Virus record (IMG/VR): IMGVR_UViG_2541047805_000004
Reading direction: 5' to 3' (one strand)
Length of the DNA: 16,123 nucleotides
From: a virus
Lineage: Duplodnaviria > Heunggongvirae > Uroviricota > Caudoviricetes
Under the pieces are notes generated by a model that worked only from the letters and a program-made list of their open reading frames with translations, made no database searches and was not told where the DNA came from. Made by a program: the position numbers and the translations under genes. Positions 1,458-7,677 of this stretch are shown here, piece by piece (within the stretch, counting starts at the first letter, position 1; the number at the start of each line of letters is the position of its first letter).

Positions 1458-2048
1458 TCAGCAATAATAAAAGGAGTAAATCCTTCCGTTATCCTCATCA
1501 AAGGCAGCAAGTTCATCATAACCCGCCACATCCACCGACTTTTCACGGTAGTTTTTTGCCGCTTTACCGCCCAGGCACCAGAAGCCACGCCCATTGGTGA
1601 AACGCTTCATGGTGAGCGTGTTATCCCGGTGCTTTTTGCCATACCACGGGGCCAGCGCAAGCAGCGAAGGAATATCGCGGATGGTCGGCTCAACGTGGGT
1701 TTTCATAAAGTTCTCGGCATCACCATCCGTCGGCAACCAGATAAGGGTGTTGCGCTGCTTATGCTCTATGAAGTAGGCATAAACACCCAGCAGCATTTTG
1801 GAATAACCAACACGGGCAGACTTCACCACATTCACCTCGCGGACGTAGTCACTGCCCATCGCATTCATGATGGCCCGCTGAAAGGGCAGTGTTTCCCAGC
1901 GCCCTTCCTGGTATGCGGATTCTTTCGGGAGATAATAATTGGCATCCGCCCATTCAACGGCGGTCTGTGGCTCCGGCCTGAACAGTGAGCGAAGCCCGGC
2001 GCGGACAAAATGCCGCAGCCTGTTAACCTGACTGTTCGATATATTCAC
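1458..2048 (-). pseudogene. A: Terminase large subunit (lambda gpA-like), N-terminal fragment only; truncated
   Basis: The translation MNISNSQVNRLRHFVRAGLRSLF...KSVDVAGYDELAAFD matches my recollection of the lambda gpA N-terminus for about 183 residues, then diverges (EDNGRIYSFYYC-stop). Start is GTG at 2048, overlapping the Nu1 3' end as in lambda. The homology breakpoint is near 1495. Full-length gpA is about 640 aa, so the ATPase/nuclease regions are missing. Confidence 0.85.
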
Positions 2049-2568
2049 TCAGCAACCCCGGTATCAGTTCATCCAGCGCGGCTGCTTTGTTCATGGCTTT
2101 GATGATATCCCGTTTCAGGAAATCAACATGTCGGTTTTCCAGTTCCGGAAAACGCCGCTGCACCGACAGGGGGATCCCGTCGAGAATACTGGCAATTTCA
2201 CCTGCGATCCGCGACAGCACGAAAGTACAGAATGCGGTTTCCACCACTTCAGCGGAGTCTCTGGCATTTTTCAGCTCCTGTGCGTCGGCCTGTGCACGCG
2301 TAAGTCGATGGCGTTCGTACTCAATAGTCCCTGGCTGGAGATCTGCCTCGCTGGCCTGCCGCAGTTCTTCAACCTCCCGGCGCAGCTTTTCGTTCTCAAT
2401 TTCAGCATCCCTTTCGGCATACCATTTTATAACGGCGGCAGAGTCATAAAGCACCTCATTACCCTTGCCACCGCCTCGCAGAACGGGCATTCCCTGTTCC
2501 TGCCAGTTCTGAATGGTACGGATACTCGCACCGAAAATGTCAGCCAGCTGCTTTTTGTTGACTTCCAT
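2023..2568 (-). CDS. nohD: Terminase small subunit (lambda Nu1-like)
   Basis: 181-aa ORF MEVNKKQLADIFGASIRTIQNWQEQGMPVLRGGGKGNEVLYDSAAVIKWYAERDAEIENEKLRREVEELRQ..., which I recognise as the lambda Nu1 sequence (winged-HTH N-terminus). ATG at 2568; it sits immediately downstream of cos, as in lambda. Confidence 0.9.
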   Translation of the reverse strand: MEVNKKQLADIFGASIRTIQNWQEQGMPVLRGGGKGNEVLYDSAAVIKWYAERDAEIENEKLRREVEELRQASEADLQPGTIEYERHRLTRAQADAQELKNARDSAEVVETAFCTFVLSRIAGEIASILDGIPLSVQRRFPELENRHVDFLKRDIIKAMNKAAALDELIPGLLSEYIEQSG

Positions 2569-2574
2569 TGTTCA

Positions 2575-2800
2575 TTCCACGGACAAAAACAGAGAAAGGA
2601 AACGACAAAGGCCCAAAAGTTCGTTTTCAGCACCTGTCGTTTCCTTTCTTTTCAGGGGGTATTTTAAATAAAAACATTAAGTTACGACGAAGAAGAACGG
2701 AAACGCCTTAAACCGGAAAATTTTCATAAATAGCGAAAACCCGCGAGGTCGCCGCCCCGTAACCTGTCGGATCGCCGGAAAGGACCCACAAAATGATAAT
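2575..2800 (-). other. cos: Lambda-type cohesive end site (cosQ-cosN-cosB)
   Basis: The reverse complement of 2746-2757 is GGGCGGCGACCT, the lambda 12-nt cohesive end, followed on the minus strand by CGCGGGTTTTCGCTATTTATGAAAATTTTCCGGTTTAAGGCG (lambda left-end/cosB sequence) leading into Nu1. On the other side, ...CGATCCGACAGGTTACG matches the lambda right end. Confidence 0.75.
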
Positions 2801-2956
2801 GATTATCATCTGCATGTCACAACGTGCATCTACGCCATCAAACCACGTCAAATAATCAATTATGACGCAGGTATCGTATTAATTGATCTGCATCAACTTA
2901 ACGTAAAAACAACTTCAGACAATACAAATCAGCGACACTGAATACGGGACAACCTC

Positions 2957-3190
2957 ATGTCAACGAAGAACAGAACCCGCAGAACAACAACCCGCAACAT
3001 CCGCTTTCCTAACCAAATGATTGAACAAATTAACATCGCTCTTGATCAAAAAGGGTCCGGGAATTTCTCAGCCTGGGTCATTGAAGCCTGCCGCCGGAGA
3101 CTGTGCTCAGAAAAAAGAGTTTCTCCTGAAGCAAACAAAGAAAAGAGTGACATTACTGAATTGCTCAGAAAACAGATCAGACCAGATTGA
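2957..3190 (+). CDS. ylcI: Small basic protein, YlcI/YnfO-like (DUF3950); possible ribbon-helix-helix DNA-binding protein
   Basis: 77-aa ORF with ATG at 2957. It has an N-terminal Arg/Thr-rich basic stretch followed by RNIRFPNQMIEQINIALDQKGSGNFSAWVIEA, a strand-helix-helix-like pattern. Its position next to cos matches the ylcI locus of DLP12 and the small right-end ORF of lambda. Confidence 0.55.
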   Translation: MSTKNRTRRTTTRNIRFPNQMIEQINIALDQKGSGNFSAWVIEACRRRLCSEKRVSPEANKEKSDITELLRKQIRPD

Positions 3191-3248
3191 AGCAATTTAG
3201 ATAATCGTGCAGACTACGCCCCCCTCATATCACATGGAAGGTTTATCT

Positions 3249-3659
3249 ATGGATCAGGTAGTCATTTTTAAACAAATATTTGATAAAGTTCGAAACGATT
3301 TAAACTATCAATGGTTTTATTCTGAGCTAAAACGTCACAATGTCTCACATTACATTTACTATTTAGCCACAGAGAATGTTCATATTGTATTAAAAAATGA
3401 TAATACAGTGTTATTAAAGGGCCTAAAAAACATTGTGTCTGTCAAATTTTCAAAGGATAGGCATCTTATAGAAACGACCTCTAATAAGCTGAAATCCAGA
3501 GAGATCACATTTCAGGAATACAGAAGAAACCTTGCTAAAGCAGGAGTTTTTCGGTGGGTTACAAATATCCACGAACAAAAAAGATATTACTATACCTTTG
3601 ATAATTCATTACTCTTTACTGAAAACATACAGAGCACATCACAAATGTTTCCACACTAA
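3249..3659 (+). CDS. ybcV: DUF1398-family protein YbcV-like
   Basis: The ORF frame is open from 3207 (GTG). In-frame ATGs are at 3234 and 3249. The 3249 start has GGAAGG about 7 nt upstream and gives a 136-aa product, the length I recall for K-12 YbcV. It is 16 bp downstream of, and co-oriented with, the ylcI-like gene. Confidence 0.6.
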
Positions 3660-3961
3660 ACCATAACGTCCGGTTTCTTCTACCCCTGCACCGGACTGGC
3701 TGACATGAAGAGCAACCCCGCGTTCAGTTGACGCGTTAATAACCCGGTGTGCATCGTTTTTGATTATTCCCGCACACTCACGCAGAAGGAATTCCCCGTC
3801 GGGCTACGGTCATGGTTAATGCGGGAATACGGCGACGATACAGCGCATGATGTGTCAGGCTTGAATACCTTTATCCGTTAAAAGGGATATCAGTTAAGTT
3901 ATCCCGTGCAGGGTATAAGCCATTATCAAGCCCCCCGTAGATAGGCTTTGTAATGACATCT

Positions 3962-4486
3962 TCAATTAATCAGCAGTTCAGGCTGTGTCACCTGCAAGAT
4001 GTATTCATGCTCGACAGTCAGGACACGCTTCTCTTTCTTCCGTTCGTTCATTAACCGACTGCCGATCGTACCTTTCAGCTTTGAGCGTGTTTCTTTGATG
4101 GCGTAGCGGTGCTGCATTTCTTCGCCAATTGCCATGCGGCGGCTCAGTTGTTCTGCCATCCAGTTGAATGCTGCGATATAGCTCTCCTTGATTGCCGCAG
4201 CAGCTTTCCCGGTGAACCCCATCACAACCATGATCCAGCCATCTTTCGTCAGGCTGTACATCGGGCGAACCTTGCCCTGCTCATCGATATAATCAGCCGA
4301 CGCAAAATTGCGTTGGCTAAACTCACGCGAGCAATCAGCCTTAACCTGCTCGATTTTCCTGAGAACATCACCGTGTCGCTTGCCGAAGTACTTGGCAATT
4401 TTTCTGGATGTGGTAACGACCTCTCCGTTTTTGGCTTGCACCATTTCTCGGAAGTCGAAGGCTGGAATAACTGAATGATTATTCAT
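3962..4486 (-). CDS. Phage regulatory protein, Rha family (antirepressor-like)
   Basis: A 174-aa product from the ATG at 4486: MNNHSVIPAFDFREMVQAKNGEVVTTSRKIAKYFGKRHGDVLRKIEQ... This N-terminal signature is typical of the Rha/ORF6N domain family. The longer 255-aa ORF in the track has an N-terminal extension with no protein-like character. Confidence 0.6.
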   Translation of the reverse strand: MNNHSVIPAFDFREMVQAKNGEVVTTSRKIAKYFGKRHGDVLRKIEQVKADCSREFSQRNFASADYIDEQGKVRPMYSLTKDGWIMVVMGFTGKAAAAIKESYIAAFNWMAEQLSRRMAIGEEMQHRYAIKETRSKLKGTIGSRLMNERKKEKRVLTVEHEYILQVTQPELLIN

Positions 4487-4630
4487 AGCGTCTTTACCTT
4501 TTAGAAAGTGAGCCTGTCTCACAGAAAAGCCGCCCGAGAGAGGTCGCCACCTATAACGGCATTTCTCAGGCTCGCTTACTGAAAGGCTCTCGTTAATATG
4601 CGCGTGAGATGCGCTGTGAAATTCAGATAT

Positions 4631-4654
4631 AAAAAGCCCCGCGAATGCGAGGCT
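4631..4654 (-). terminator. Rho-independent terminator downstream of the lysis cassette (Rz/Rz1)
   Basis: The minus strand reads GCCTCGC ATTC GCGGGGC TTTTTAT: a 7-bp GC-rich stem (one G-U), a 4-nt loop and a T5 run. It lies about 175 nt after the Rz stop and about 145 nt before the Rha-like start. Confidence 0.6.
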
Positions 4655-4828
4655 AAATCCTGGTATTTGTAATGAACTGGCTCTTATCTCAACGCAGCCC
4701 CTTACTGCGCGCCAGATGCTCAATATCAAGCATCAGCAATGAGATGTTTAATCTGGATTTACTCCAGAAGTGATCACCACCCTGTCTACAGAGCCAGATG
4801 TGAAGGATGATGAGTAAAATTATCGCTA

Positions 4829-6594: not shown

Positions 6595-7677
6595 ATGAAA
6601 AAATTAACAGTGGCAATTTCTGCTGTAGCTGCATCAGTACTGATGGCGATGTCTGCTCAGGCAGCTGAAATTTATAATAAAGACAGTAACAAGCTGGATC
6701 TGTACGGGAAAGTTAATGCTAAGCACTACTTCTCCTCTAATGATGCAGATGATGGTGATACTACTTATGCCCGTCTTGGCTTCAAAGGTGAAACCCAAAT
6801 CAACGATCAACTGACTGGTTTCGGTCAGTGGGAATATGAATTCAAAGGCAACCGCGCTGAATCTCAAGGTTCCTCCAAAGATAAAACCCGTCTTGCCTTC
6901 GCTGGCCTGAAATTCGGTGACTACGGCTCCATCGATTACGGCCGTAACTACGGTGTAGCATACGACATCGGTGCGTGGACTGACGTCCTGCCAGAATTCG
7001 GTGGTGACACTTGGACTCAAACAGATGTGTTCATGACTGGTCGCACCACTGGTGTTGCAACTTATCGTAACAACGACTTCTTTGGTCTGGTTGATGGTCT
7101 GAACTTTGCTGCTCAGTATCAGGGTAAAAATGACCGCACTGACGTAACTGAAGCTAATGGTGATGGTTTCGGTTTCTCCACTACTTATGAGTATGAAGGA
7201 TTCGGTGTAGGTGCAACCTATGCTAAATCTGATCGCACTAATAATCAGGTTATCTACGGTAACAACGGTCTGAATGCTTCTGGTCAAAATGCTGAAGTAT
7301 GGGCAGCTGGTCTGAAATATGATGCGAACAACATCTATCTGGCCACCACCTATTCTGAAACCCAGAACATGACTGTTTTTGGTAATAACCATATTGCCAA
7401 CAAAGCACAAAACTTCGAAGCTGTTGCACAATATCAGTTCGACTTCGGCCTGCGTCCATCCGTTGCTTACCTGCATTCTAAAGGAAAAGACTTGGGTGTT
7501 TGGGGTGATCAGGACCTGGTTGAATATGTTGATGTAGGTGCAACCTATTACTTCAACAAAAATATGTCCACTTTTGTTGACTACAAAATCAACCTGATTG
7601 ATAAGAGCGATTTCACGAAAGCATCTGGCGTTGCTACCGATGATATCGTTGCTGTAGGTATGGTTTACCAGTTCTAA
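6595..7677 (+). CDS. nmpC: OmpC/OmpF-family general porin (NmpC/OmpD-like), apparently intact
   Basis: 360-aa ORF with signal peptide [23 protein letters not shown]|AEIYNKD, porin hallmarks throughout, and a C-terminal aromatic residue (…VYQF). AAGGG RBS before the ATG at 6595. It lies between Q and the holin on the opposite strand, the position of nmpC in DLP12. Confidence 0.9.

Follow-up and report, generated by a model that had tools for sequence, protein, structure and literature searches.

A Fur box beside cosQ and an FNR site upstream of ynfO in a DLP12/lambda-like Escherichia coli prophage: sequence comparison suggests separate regulatory targets

Fur sites have been described in two prophages of E. 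coli K-12, at nohA (Qin) and at nohB/nohD (DLP12) (Stojiljkovic 1994; Vassinova & Kozyrev 2000; Chen et al. 2007, PMC2189734). The published nohA and nohB sites titrate Fur in vivo and shift in gels with Fur, with site strengths of 25.3 bits for nohB and 22.3 bits for nohA. An in vivo selection for Fur-binding fragments recovered the Qin nohA copy, which also gave a gel shift with Fur, and among the Fur clusters predicted in K-12 the DLP12 copy ranks third in strength (PMC2189734). The corresponding position in a CFT073 prophage has a Fur ChIP-exo peak, detected under iron-replete conditions (PMC10164565). The intergenic regions nohA/ynfO and ylcI/nohB are also FNR targets, for which binding has been reported without an expression effect (Grainger et al. 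2007, PMC1802558; Myers et al. 2013, PMC3688515), and Myers et al. class nohA/ynfO with feoABC-type co-control, in which FNR activates and Fur represses (PMC3688515). In the literature the Fur and FNR sites are both filed under nohA/nohB.

We analyzed a window of 16,123 nucleotides (the whole stretch of DNA studied), which is a defective DLP12/lambda-like E. coli prophage. The 1.1 kb queried, 2560-3700, is 100% identical to an E. coli chromosome, annotated there as a DLP12-like defective prophage adjoining bio/ybhB. The K-12 Fur sites are counterparts of the site in this window: like it, they lie 233 bp upstream of a Nu1-type gene and just past cosQ, with shared neighbours, and each K-12 copy differs from the window site by one base. 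Unlike them, the window copy belongs to a third prophage, which occupies the lambda attachment site in another strain.

The Fur-site, FNR-site and gene-family sequences are also present in phage lambda, whose right end (about 47.0-48.5 kb: the DUF1398 gene lambdap78, lambdap79, a ylcI-like orf and cosQ) carries the same Fur box, FNR box and DUF3950 gene. Lambda 48485-48300 is the counterpart of window 2775-2960 with an identity of 94.6%, and the mean column identity to lambda over the nohD-to-ynfO intergenic stretch is 98%. Unlike the window, lambda has the 64-aa YlcI form, with an opposite-strand p79/ybcW-type gene between the pair, and its DUF1398 protein is 77% identical to the window protein. 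Earlier work on E. coli K-12 prophages describes the two regulatory sites and the two gene families, and the locus has little weight as a discovery; the sole useful residue is the re-assignment of the two sites to their targets, argued below. The features are collected in Table 1.

Table 1. Features of the cos-proximal region, in window coordinates
Feature	Position	Strand	Remark
nohD, lambda Nu1-type small terminase subunit, divergent neighbour of the gene pair	2023..2568	-	Pfam Phage_Nu1 E 9e-101; RefSeq nohD
cosB region, three R-type terminase-binding repeats	2598..2705		GGAAACG/CGTTTCC at 2598, 2638, 2699
cosN, 12-nt lambda cohesive end GGGCGGCGACCT	2746..2757	-	exact match
cosQ GGGTCCT, packaging-termination subsite	2781..2787	-	exact match; cosQ annotated there in the curated phage 434 record
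Fur operator, 8-1-8 palindrome ATGATAATGATTATCAT	2793..2809		core 2794-2808 is a perfect 7-1-7 Fur motif
sigma-70-like promoter GTGACA-16-TATCAT, predicted	2793..2820	-	reads toward cos/nohD; score 10/12
FNR site TTGATCTGCATCAA	2883..2896		exact TTGAT-N4-ATCAA consensus; absent from the first-pass annotation
Predicted -10 hexamer GACAAT, class II FNR promoter of the ynfO-like gene	2918..2923	+	conserved spacing
ynfO-like gene, 77 aa, DUF3950, basic	2957..3190	+	Pfam E 4.9e-21
ydfO-like gene, 136 aa, DUF1398	3249..3659	+	Pfam E 2e-46

The gene pair had been placed beside cos, and the positions of cosN and cosQ confirm that it adjoins a lambda-type cos: cosN, cosQ and the R repeats by the Nu1-type gene are all exact. 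The R-site consensus applied to the cosB repeats is that of lambda cosB. The aligned stretch around cosN is identical in lambda, Qin, DLP12 and CFT073. The Rfam scan of the window returned zero known RNA families.

The first-pass annotation, made from the sequence alone, had read the palindrome as a Fur box about 150 bp upstream of a two-gene module. The exact 8-1-8 palindrome was found as described, as was its 14/16 alignment to the Fur consensus by direct reading, and its centre lies 156 bp from the first ATG. Against the 19-bp consensus GATAATGATAATCATTATC the best alignment is 16/19, in two registers and on both strands, and against the 7-1-7 motif TGATAATnATTATCA it is 14/14. The 16/19 score was reached in 1/300 block shuffles of the window and 14/14 in 0/300; 0.07 matches to the palindrome are expected by chance at no more than three mismatches. 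A single flanking base separates the Qin copy GTGATAATGATTATCATC from the window palindrome, and it is the flanking A of the window that extends the palindrome to 8-1-8, whereas the K-12 nohA and nohB copies are 7-1-7. The Fur-box reading holds, orthologous copies being already shown by experiment to be Fur-bound; from their demonstrated binding of Fur-Fe2+ we infer the same for the window copy. A second Fur-like match at 4806-4824 (15/19) was dropped as being at chance level.

The palindrome had been filed under the ynfO/ydfO pair, as against noh in the literature. We scored 75 related loci for the Fur box, ylcI/ynfO (DUF3950) and DUF1398. The box was accompanied by both genes at 33 of the 75 loci, by ylcI only at 24 and by neither gene at 10-11, some of these with Rz within about 200 bp; at 7 loci the box and both genes were absent. 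At some loci the flanking DNA has diverged and the box is still perfect. From this pattern, the Fur box appears to be part of the cos module, with or without ynfO/ydfO. Its assignment to the pair is not upheld: the box stays with cos where both genes are missing, and it overlaps a promoter-like site facing nohD.

The box begins 6 bp past cosQ at a near-constant distance from cosN (offsets 47-49), and at two loci (L075 and L076) it is retained though no accessory gene follows. The same observations would fit a role of Fur as a host architectural factor acting by cosQ in packaging termination, with the box a structural part of cos and not a transcriptional operator. We consider this extremely improbable, given that the seven loci lacking the box share cosN and at least 99% identical Nu1, with an identical cosQ in six of the seven, and that the CFT073 box acts as a transcriptional operator. 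We know of no report of a Fur requirement for lambda growth.

The consensus promoter scan of 2500-3800 gave only two overlapping matches, both on the minus strand and with the -10 in common, and the -10 hexamer and spacer of the predicted noh-direction promoter fall within the Fur operator. From the '-85.5' entry of PMC1802558, the nohA transcription start would lie at about 2804 in the window. In lambda and Qin the noh-direction -10 is TATCAC, weaker than the TATCAT of the window. On the plus strand, neither the scan nor manual reading detected a sigma-70 promoter across the Fur box. We propose that the operator, as part of the cos module, would be bound by Fur-Fe2+ and would cover the core of a promoter-like site reading across cos into nohD and the terminase genes. 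With the operator placed over this core, the likeliest direct effect of Fur at plentiful iron would be the silencing of transcription in the cos/nohD direction.

Direct repression of a ynfO-ydfO transcript by Fur, with induction of the pair by iron starvation, was also weighed. The Fur box lies in the divergent intergenic region, 156 bp upstream of the ynfO ATG, and masking of FNR activation by Fur has been proposed for this locus by Myers et al. (PMC3688515). In the CFT073 delta-fur mutant, genes on both sides of the box were derepressed, with log2 changes of +1.3 and +2.1 for the terminase-side genes and of +2.3 and +2.9 for those across the box (PMC10164565); the rise of the equivalent-side genes, 5- to 8-fold, together with the ChIP-exo peak, favours direct repression. 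However, the CFT073 DNA downstream is unrelated, and a promoter-like site abuts the box there (read by eye, unscanned). All 57 of the 57 ylcI/ynfO genes come with a Fur box, which would also favour direct repression, but the physical distance of 150 bp explains this linkage. In the window, the inferred ynfO transcription start is some 130 bp downstream of the box, which no plus-strand promoter overlaps.

The K-12 expression data likewise argue against direct repression and do not support the earlier proposal of an iron-regulated pair: no derepression was seen in delta-fur RNA-seq, for which we assumed aerobic growth. In W3110 delta-fur, ynfO, ydfO, ylcI, ybcV and nohD were all decreased, with low counts and a collapse of appY as well, so that the decrease may be indirect; in MG1655 delta-fur these genes were near zero and unchanged. 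The main text of an anaerobic delta-fur study (Beauchene 2015) does not mention them. Under copper, ybcV was among the most strongly down-regulated genes and iron-uptake genes were up. The copper response and the W3110 and MG1655 results also count against our favoured interpretation. Overall, direct Fur repression of the pair seems doubtful to us, and silencing in the noh direction is preferred.

An element missing from the first-pass annotation, the FNR site (half-sites 2883-2887 and 2892-2896), lies between the Fur box and ynfO, and the same upstream region has an inverted repeat at 2855-2867/2875-2887. Two matches to the exact FNR consensus were found in the window versus 0.05 expected. 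The identical sequence at K-12 nohA/ynfO and ylcI/nohB is FNR-bound by ChIP-chip, ChIP-seq and EMSA (PMC1802558, PMC3688515), the identity covering the 14-bp site and 24 bp of context. Its motif score of 16.68 is the highest among the entries examined of the published supplementary motif table. The site was detected at 57/57 loci having ylcI/ynfO and at 0/18 loci without them.

The ynfO-like gene has its own upstream element in this exact FNR site, with spacing that points to a class II promoter: the FNR centre is about 41 bp before an inferred transcription start near 2930. The GACAAT hexamer is only a 4/6 match to -10; the FNR-to-GACAAT and FNR-to-ATG spacings are constant within 1 bp across diverged alleles. 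The Fur-to-FNR distance varies between alleles (88.5, 90.5, 94.5 or 95.5 bp), being 88.5 bp in the window. The FNR binding of the identical K-12 sites and the class II spacing make anaerobic activation of ynfO, and probably of the co-directional ydfO 58 nt downstream, the most likely outcome. Fur may additionally mask this activation, as Myers et al. proposed for the peak labelled nohA, which is nohA/ynfO in their supplement (PMC3688515).

Myers et al. found no FNR-dependent expression, and their sigma-70 peak table omits the region (PMC3688515); the lone published reporter fusion, which reads toward noh, was weak with barely any fnr effect. The published tests for an FNR effect were all null and covered only the noh direction or iron-replete medium. 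Our class II reading toward ynfO differs in this from the published targets. The window resembles feoABC-type promoters in having a strong FNR and a strong Fur site together; unlike at those promoters, 88.5 bp separate the two sites, and each appears to serve its own, divergent promoter.

The comparison suggests a re-assignment in which the Fur box goes to cos and the terminase-direction promoter, and the FNR site to ylcI/ynfO. Our favoured interpretation, held with moderate confidence, is that the region consists of a cos-proximal control region and the first two accessory genes, with Fur acting on noh, FNR acting on ynfO, and the genes being independent cargo. If confirmed, the re-assignment would be the first account of how two genes of unknown function are regulated, genes of types that most E. 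coli genomes and also lambda carry. A more ambitious interpretation is that Fur and FNR on the cosQ side form a two-input host-signal switch, whose target YlcI/YnfO would be an Arc-like DNA binder made under combined anaerobiosis and iron limitation in lysogens and regulating phage or host genes. We regard such a switch as unlikely; if true, it would be an unrecognised environmental input, from gut-like conditions, into lambda-type prophages.

The labels ylcI-like and ybcV given previously to the two genes should be replaced, the pair being of the Qin type, ynfO and ydfO. The 77-aa protein is 96% identical to K-12 YnfO of prophage Qin and 81% to YlcI, and the 136-aa protein is 96% identical to K-12 YdfO of Qin and 77% to YbcV. 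The descriptions of a 77-aa basic protein (pI 10.6) and of a 136-aa DUF1398 protein on the same strand are confirmed, the Pfam scores being 74.8 bits for DUF3950 (gathering cut-off 25) and 157 bits for DUF1398 (cut-off 22). The 136-aa protein matches the solved YdfO structure, PDB 2HH8, with E 5e-85. Its AlphaFold2 model (pLDDT 49.5, TM-score 0.27 versus its own NMR structure 2HH8) was dropped as a source for the DUF1398 fold. The two genes had been described as 16 bp apart; there are 58 nt from the first stop to ATG 3249, the RefSeq start of the 136-aa product, with GGAAGG 7 nt upstream, and a 16-nt gap fits only a 150-aa GTG ORF starting at 3207. The dN/dS is about 0.05 for the N-terminal 49 codons of the ynfO-like gene and about 0.2 for the ydfO-like gene versus ybcV.

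A ribbon-helix-helix-like pattern had been ascribed to the 77-aa protein. The AlphaFold2 model has an extended segment at 13-18 and helices at 19-32 and 34-52 (pLDDT about 80), with an extra predicted C-terminal helix at 60-73. The best Foldseek matches of the model are ribbon-helix-helix-like (TCP domain, ParD2) with E 4.8 or worse, and hhalign against Arc and Mnt gave the expected register at a probability of 0.65%. BLASTP of YnfO against Arc, the PDB phmmer search and the PDB profile search gave no significant match. The pattern is confirmed by no significant match in any of these comparisons, and from the model YnfO is possibly an Arc-like ribbon-helix-helix DNA-binding protein.

The two genes had also been likened to a toxin-antitoxin pair, in which YnfO would be a ribbon-helix-helix antitoxin and autorepressor and its C-terminal tail would neutralise YdfO. 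Ribbon-helix-helix modules (ParD/ParE, HicB C-terminal domain) likewise have a small basic gene followed by a gene for about 130 aa on the same strand, and here ydfO follows ynfO in the same direction after 58 nt, with no terminator predicted between them. The small basic first protein with a helix-helix core and an extra C-terminal helix, and a weak PHROG match to HicB-like antitoxins (E 0.007), also favour such a pair. Unlike ParD/ParE-type modules, the window pair has no significant family similarity, and the partners are not co-inherited: 24/57 DUF3950 genes, including that of phage 434, have no DUF1398 gene within 2.6 kb, and the gap in lambda and DLP12 is 656 nt with an opposite-strand gene between. 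Six of six distant DUF1398 homologues examined (on seven contigs) are solitary and without DUF3950, located beside bluR, in the Q-holin slot or in chromosomal contexts. Pfam gave only the two DUFs and no toxin or antitoxin match. The PADLOC defence scan detected nothing for the 77-aa protein or the Rha gene, and for the 136-aa protein one insignificant match (Csx23, E 0.013). YdfO overexpression was reported to raise oxidative-stress resistance rather than to kill.

Since DUF3950 is often found without DUF1398, and distant DUF1398 genes stand alone, the toxin-antitoxin reading is unsupported and, in our judgement, very unlikely; the co-occurrence test and the homology searches both went against it. 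Genes for the 77-aa tail variant are followed by a DUF1398 gene at 56-58 nt in 26/26 cases, which would favour a functional pair and is also expected from a recombination junction in the 3' end of ynfO. YnfO might, in addition, be coupled to YdfO through its Qin-type C-terminal tail. We propose that YnfO and YdfO would be independent accessory 'moron' cargo, comprising a strongly conserved small basic DUF3950 protein, possibly an Arc-like binder, and a DUF1398 protein; ybcV in DLP12 has its own PdhR-dependent control region. A 233-aa 'YnfO-YdfO fusion' (P0121), in which the TGA stop is read as Trp, was taken as a gene-calling artefact.

The sequence ATGATAAT-G-ATTATCAT forms exactly the 17-nt palindrome that the first-pass annotation reported, and its reading as a Fur box holds. 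The 14 of 16 consensus positions counted there are right when the sequence is read directly; a better alignment gives 16/19 to GATAATGATAATCATTATC in two registers and on both strands, and the 7-1-7 motif TGATAATnATTATCA is matched at 14/14 positions. For the palindrome, 0.07 chance matches are expected at ≤3 mismatches, and in block shuffles of the window (n = 300) 16/19 was reached once and 14/14 in none. According to the motif positions, the palindrome starts 6 bp beyond cosQ, which the curated record of phage 434 annotates at the equivalent position.

Earlier publications already describe the Fur site, filed under nohA and nohB. Among predicted K-12 Fur clusters 'nohB' is the third strongest (25.3 bits), credited to a 1994 Fur titration assay, and the 'nohA' site (22.3 bits) precedes its gene by 233 bp (Chen et al. 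2007, PMC2189734), equal to the distance from the Fur box to nohD in the window (2801 vs 2568). The nohA oligonucleotide was gel-shifted with Fur, and the fragment had earlier been selected in vivo as Fur-binding (PMC2189734). The box is GTGATAATGATTATCATC in Qin and lambda and ATGATAATAATTATCATC in DLP12; between nohD and the start of ynfO, mean column identity to phage lambda is 98%, and lambda 48485-48300 is the counterpart of window 2775-2960. At the homologous position in a CFT073 prophage (box sequence GAGAATAATTATCAC), a Fur ChIP-exo peak was found under iron-replete conditions only, and the genes flanking the box on both sides belong to the direct Fur regulon: in delta-fur the accessory-side genes show log2 changes of +2.9 and +2.3, and those of the terminase side +1.3 and +2.1 (Gao et al. 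2023, PMC10164565).

Features of the cos-proximal region and neighbouring genes (window coordinates)
Feature	Position	Strand	Remark
nohD	2023-2568	-	Nu1-type small terminase gene
cosN	2746-2757		motif position
cosQ	2781-2787		motif position
Fur box	2793-2809		8-1-8 palindrome
Sigma-70-like site GTGACA-16-TATCAT	2820 down to 2793	-	10/12, predicted
Inverted repeat ATCAATTATGACG / CGTATTAATTGAT	2855-2867 / 2875-2887		13 nt, 85% complementary
FNR site TTGATCTGCATCAA	2883-2896		between Fur box and ynfO-like start; exact consensus
-10-like hexamer	2918-2923		GACAAT/GATAAT
ynfO-like gene	2957-3190	+	DUF3950, 77 aa
ydfO-like gene	3249-3659	+	DUF1398, 136 aa
Rha-family regulator gene	3962-4729	-	between ydfO and Rz gene
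Porin gene	6595-7677		intact, 360 aa, annotated ompC
Second exact FNR-type box TTGATTATTATCAA	10587-10600		within ybcM (AraC-family) gene

The assignment of the Fur box to the gene pair was not supported by comparison of related loci. The set comprised 80 viral contigs with Nu1 ≥99% identical to that of the window, plus the K-12, lambda and CFT073 loci; the tally covers 75 loci, mutually non-independent, with DUF1398 counted within 2.6 kb. The DNA past cosQ is a mosaic: 33/75 loci carry the box with both genes, 24/75 the box and ylcI/ynfO with DUF1398 absent within 2.6 kb, 10-11/75 the box and neither gene, and 7/75 neither box nor genes. The box-only class includes the CFT073 type and two loci with the Rz gene ≤ ~200 bp on. 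In three diverged loci (L067, L069 and L072) the flanks of the box have changed, with indels, and the 7-1-7 core is still perfect. Since box-only loci exist and the core is kept where flanks diverge, the box tracks cos and not the gene pair; that ylcI/ynfO always occurs with the box (57/57) is expected because they are only 150 bp apart. The CFT073 locus (L006, NC_004431.1 1422500-1426500) is a different lambdoid prophage that retains the cosQ-proximal box; the cargo behind it is unrelated and comprises a small ORF with a signal peptide, a TonB-family gene and iss.

Fur would probably act on the terminase side. Between 2500 and 3800, sigma-70-like matches were detected on the minus strand only, and no plus-strand promoter overlapping the Fur box was found. 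The best site has its -10 hexamer and spacer within the box and reads toward cos and nohD. With the FNR site at '-85.5' relative to nohA (Grainger et al., PMC1802558), transcription of nohA is assumed to start at about window 2804, within the palindrome.

Derepression of the pair, suggested earlier to be iron-regulated, was not seen in published K-12 delta-fur RNA-seq data. In MG1655, expression of ybcV, nohD, ydfO and nohQ is close to zero and does not change; in W3110, ynfO, ydfO, ybcV, ybcW and nohD decreased, a direction that a further check confirmed, with small counts (PMC10164565), and DLP12 appY fell ~17-fold alongside ybcV, ybcW, ylcI and nohD (PMC10164565 supplement). MG1655 has no comparable fall. 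The DLP12 drop is strain-specific, and the W3110 decrease may be indirect because counts are small and appY is also 17-fold lower. Under copper, ybcV was among the most strongly down-regulated genes, while iron-uptake genes increased. If the K-12 delta-fur data are aerobic, as we assume, they would be blind to regulation of an FNR-requiring promoter.

Such a promoter is suggested by a second conserved island in the aligned diverged versions, ATTAATTGATCTGCATCAA...GACAAT, missed in the first-pass annotation. It contains one of two exact FNR consensus matches in the window (0.05 expected). FNR ChIP-chip peaks 'nohB' and 'nohA/ydfO' with an identical 24-bp site were EMSA-confirmed (Grainger et al. 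2007, PMC1802558), and the 'ylcI/nohB' and 'nohA/ynfO' peaks were present in all data sets of Myers et al. 2013 (PMC3688515), with a motif score (16.68) that is the highest among the entries read in the supplementary motif table. No FNR-dependent expression was found in glucose minimal medium, and Fur masking was proposed (PMC3688515). The one reporter tested, equivalent to window 2566-3093, had low activity and a marginal fnr effect (PMC1802558); the restriction sites of its primers and the cloning into pRW50 suggest that it was oriented toward noh.

All 57 ylcI/ynfO loci carry the FNR site (54 exact), at -74/-73 relative to the ATG, and none of the 18 loci lacking the gene does. Its distance to the -10-like hexamer is invariant and that to the ATG is 66.5-67.5 bp (≤1 bp variation); the Fur-to-FNR distance is 88.5, 90.5, 94.5 or 95.5 bp. 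This conservation suggests that the FNR site belongs to ylcI/ynfO. Relative to a putative start near 2930, the centre of the FNR site (2889.5) would lie at about -41, a class II geometry. The 13-nt inverted repeat overlaps the left FNR half-site and may serve the DUF3950 protein as an operator. In K-12, the equivalent of the ybcM box is a predicted site that lacks an FNR peak and is occupied by H-NS, IHF and Fis (PMC3688515).

A two-part mechanism appears most likely, in which a Fur operator that is part of cos would silence terminase-direction transcription, and an FNR-dependent promoter belonging to ylcI/ynfO would drive the accessory genes, possibly being masked by Fur. The testable residue is the FNR site, perhaps with Fur masking, re-assigned to ylcI/ynfO in lambda-type prophages.

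The first-pass annotation was largely right in the palindrome, the two ORFs and their families, and wrong in the gene spacing and gene names. The first ORF encodes a basic protein (pI 10.6) matching Pfam DUF3950 (E 4.9e-21), and the second matches DUF1398 (E 2e-46). Identity is 96% to YnfO and YdfO of prophage Qin in K-12, and 81% and 77%, respectively, to DLP12 YlcI and YbcV and likewise to the corresponding lambda proteins. The Qin layout is the same (nohA, ynfO of 77 aa, 57-nt gap, ydfO of 136 aa), and the YdfO NMR structure, PDB 2HH8, was matched at E 5e-85; the pair is therefore ynfO/ydfO and not 'ylcI-like/ybcV'. The 16-nt gap is that of a 150-aa GTG ORF from 3207; the 136-aa product begins at the RefSeq ATG, 58 nt past the first stop, with GGAAGG 7 nt upstream. 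Purifying selection acts on both genes (dN/dS ~0.2 for ydfO vs ybcV; ~0.05 for the first 49 ynfO codons vs diverged alleles). Existing annotations call DUF1398 proteins either 'head protein' (PHROG 413, RefSeq lambda-like records) or 'putative envelope protein'; no support for either label was found, and both look like propagated annotations.

The toxin-antitoxin-like reading is not supported by the gene contexts. DUF3950 genes lack a DUF1398 neighbour in 24/57 cases; in phage 434, ylcI is followed directly by bor; in lambda and DLP12, 656 nt with an opposite-strand gene separate the two, and DLP12 ybcV has its own PdhR-dependent control region. The DUF1398 family is small (196 representatives at E ≤1e-3 among 1.84 billion), and the six distant members whose contexts were read (seven contigs) are all solitary: one adjoins bluR/bluF, the ycgX position in K-12, another sits between the phage Q antiterminator and holin genes, and the others are chromosomal. 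Neither protein matched a toxin, antitoxin or defence family in Pfam or PADLOC, and a PHROG HicB-like match (E 0.007) is the sole hint. YdfO overexpression is cited in one paper as increasing oxidative-stress resistance. In 26/26 cases the YnfO variant of 77 aa, for which AlphaFold2 predicts an additional C-terminal helix (60-73), is followed by a DUF1398 gene at 56-58 nt; a recombination junction within the ynfO 3' end explains this linkage, and Qin-type ynfO/ydfO coupling is possible.

The ribbon-helix-helix assignment of YnfO is tentative. Its N-terminal 50 residues are very conserved and the tail is variable; the AlphaFold2 model (pLDDT ~80), with two helices after an extended segment, fits a ribbon-helix-helix monomer and provides a lead for the fold. 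No comparison was significant (best Foldseek E 4.8; hhalign probability vs Arc and Mnt 0.65%), and BLASTP and PDB profile searches returned nothing. A DUF1398 fold inference was dropped since the predicted model was unreliable. The 'YnfO-YdfO fusion' P0121 (233 aa, 761 member sequences) is an artefact in which TGA, the stop codon, was translated as Trp, probably because an alternative genetic code was applied in gene calling. Among the 'homologues' of the two proteins, many (P0021-P0119, P0136-P0240) come from ~3.5-kb ENA contigs with error-like variation and inflate the apparent size and diversity of both families; our guess is that they probably derive from reads of a control amplicon for sequencing, taken from the lambda right end.

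A 1.1 kb query (window 2560-3700) is 100% identical to one E. coli chromosome, annotated there as a DLP12-like defective prophage beside bioA/ybhB, where lambda has its attachment region; the prophage has a truncated large terminase gene, with IS1 nearby. This stretch has matches in 4696/5426 complete E. coli genomes. The porin gene lies between the lysis genes and quuD, at the nmpC position of DLP12; K-12 nmpC is a pseudogene in two fragments in the RefSeq record. The Rha-family gene occupies the slot of bor in lambda and DLP12; its longest ORF is 255 aa from TTG, and the RefSeq annotation gives 174 aa.
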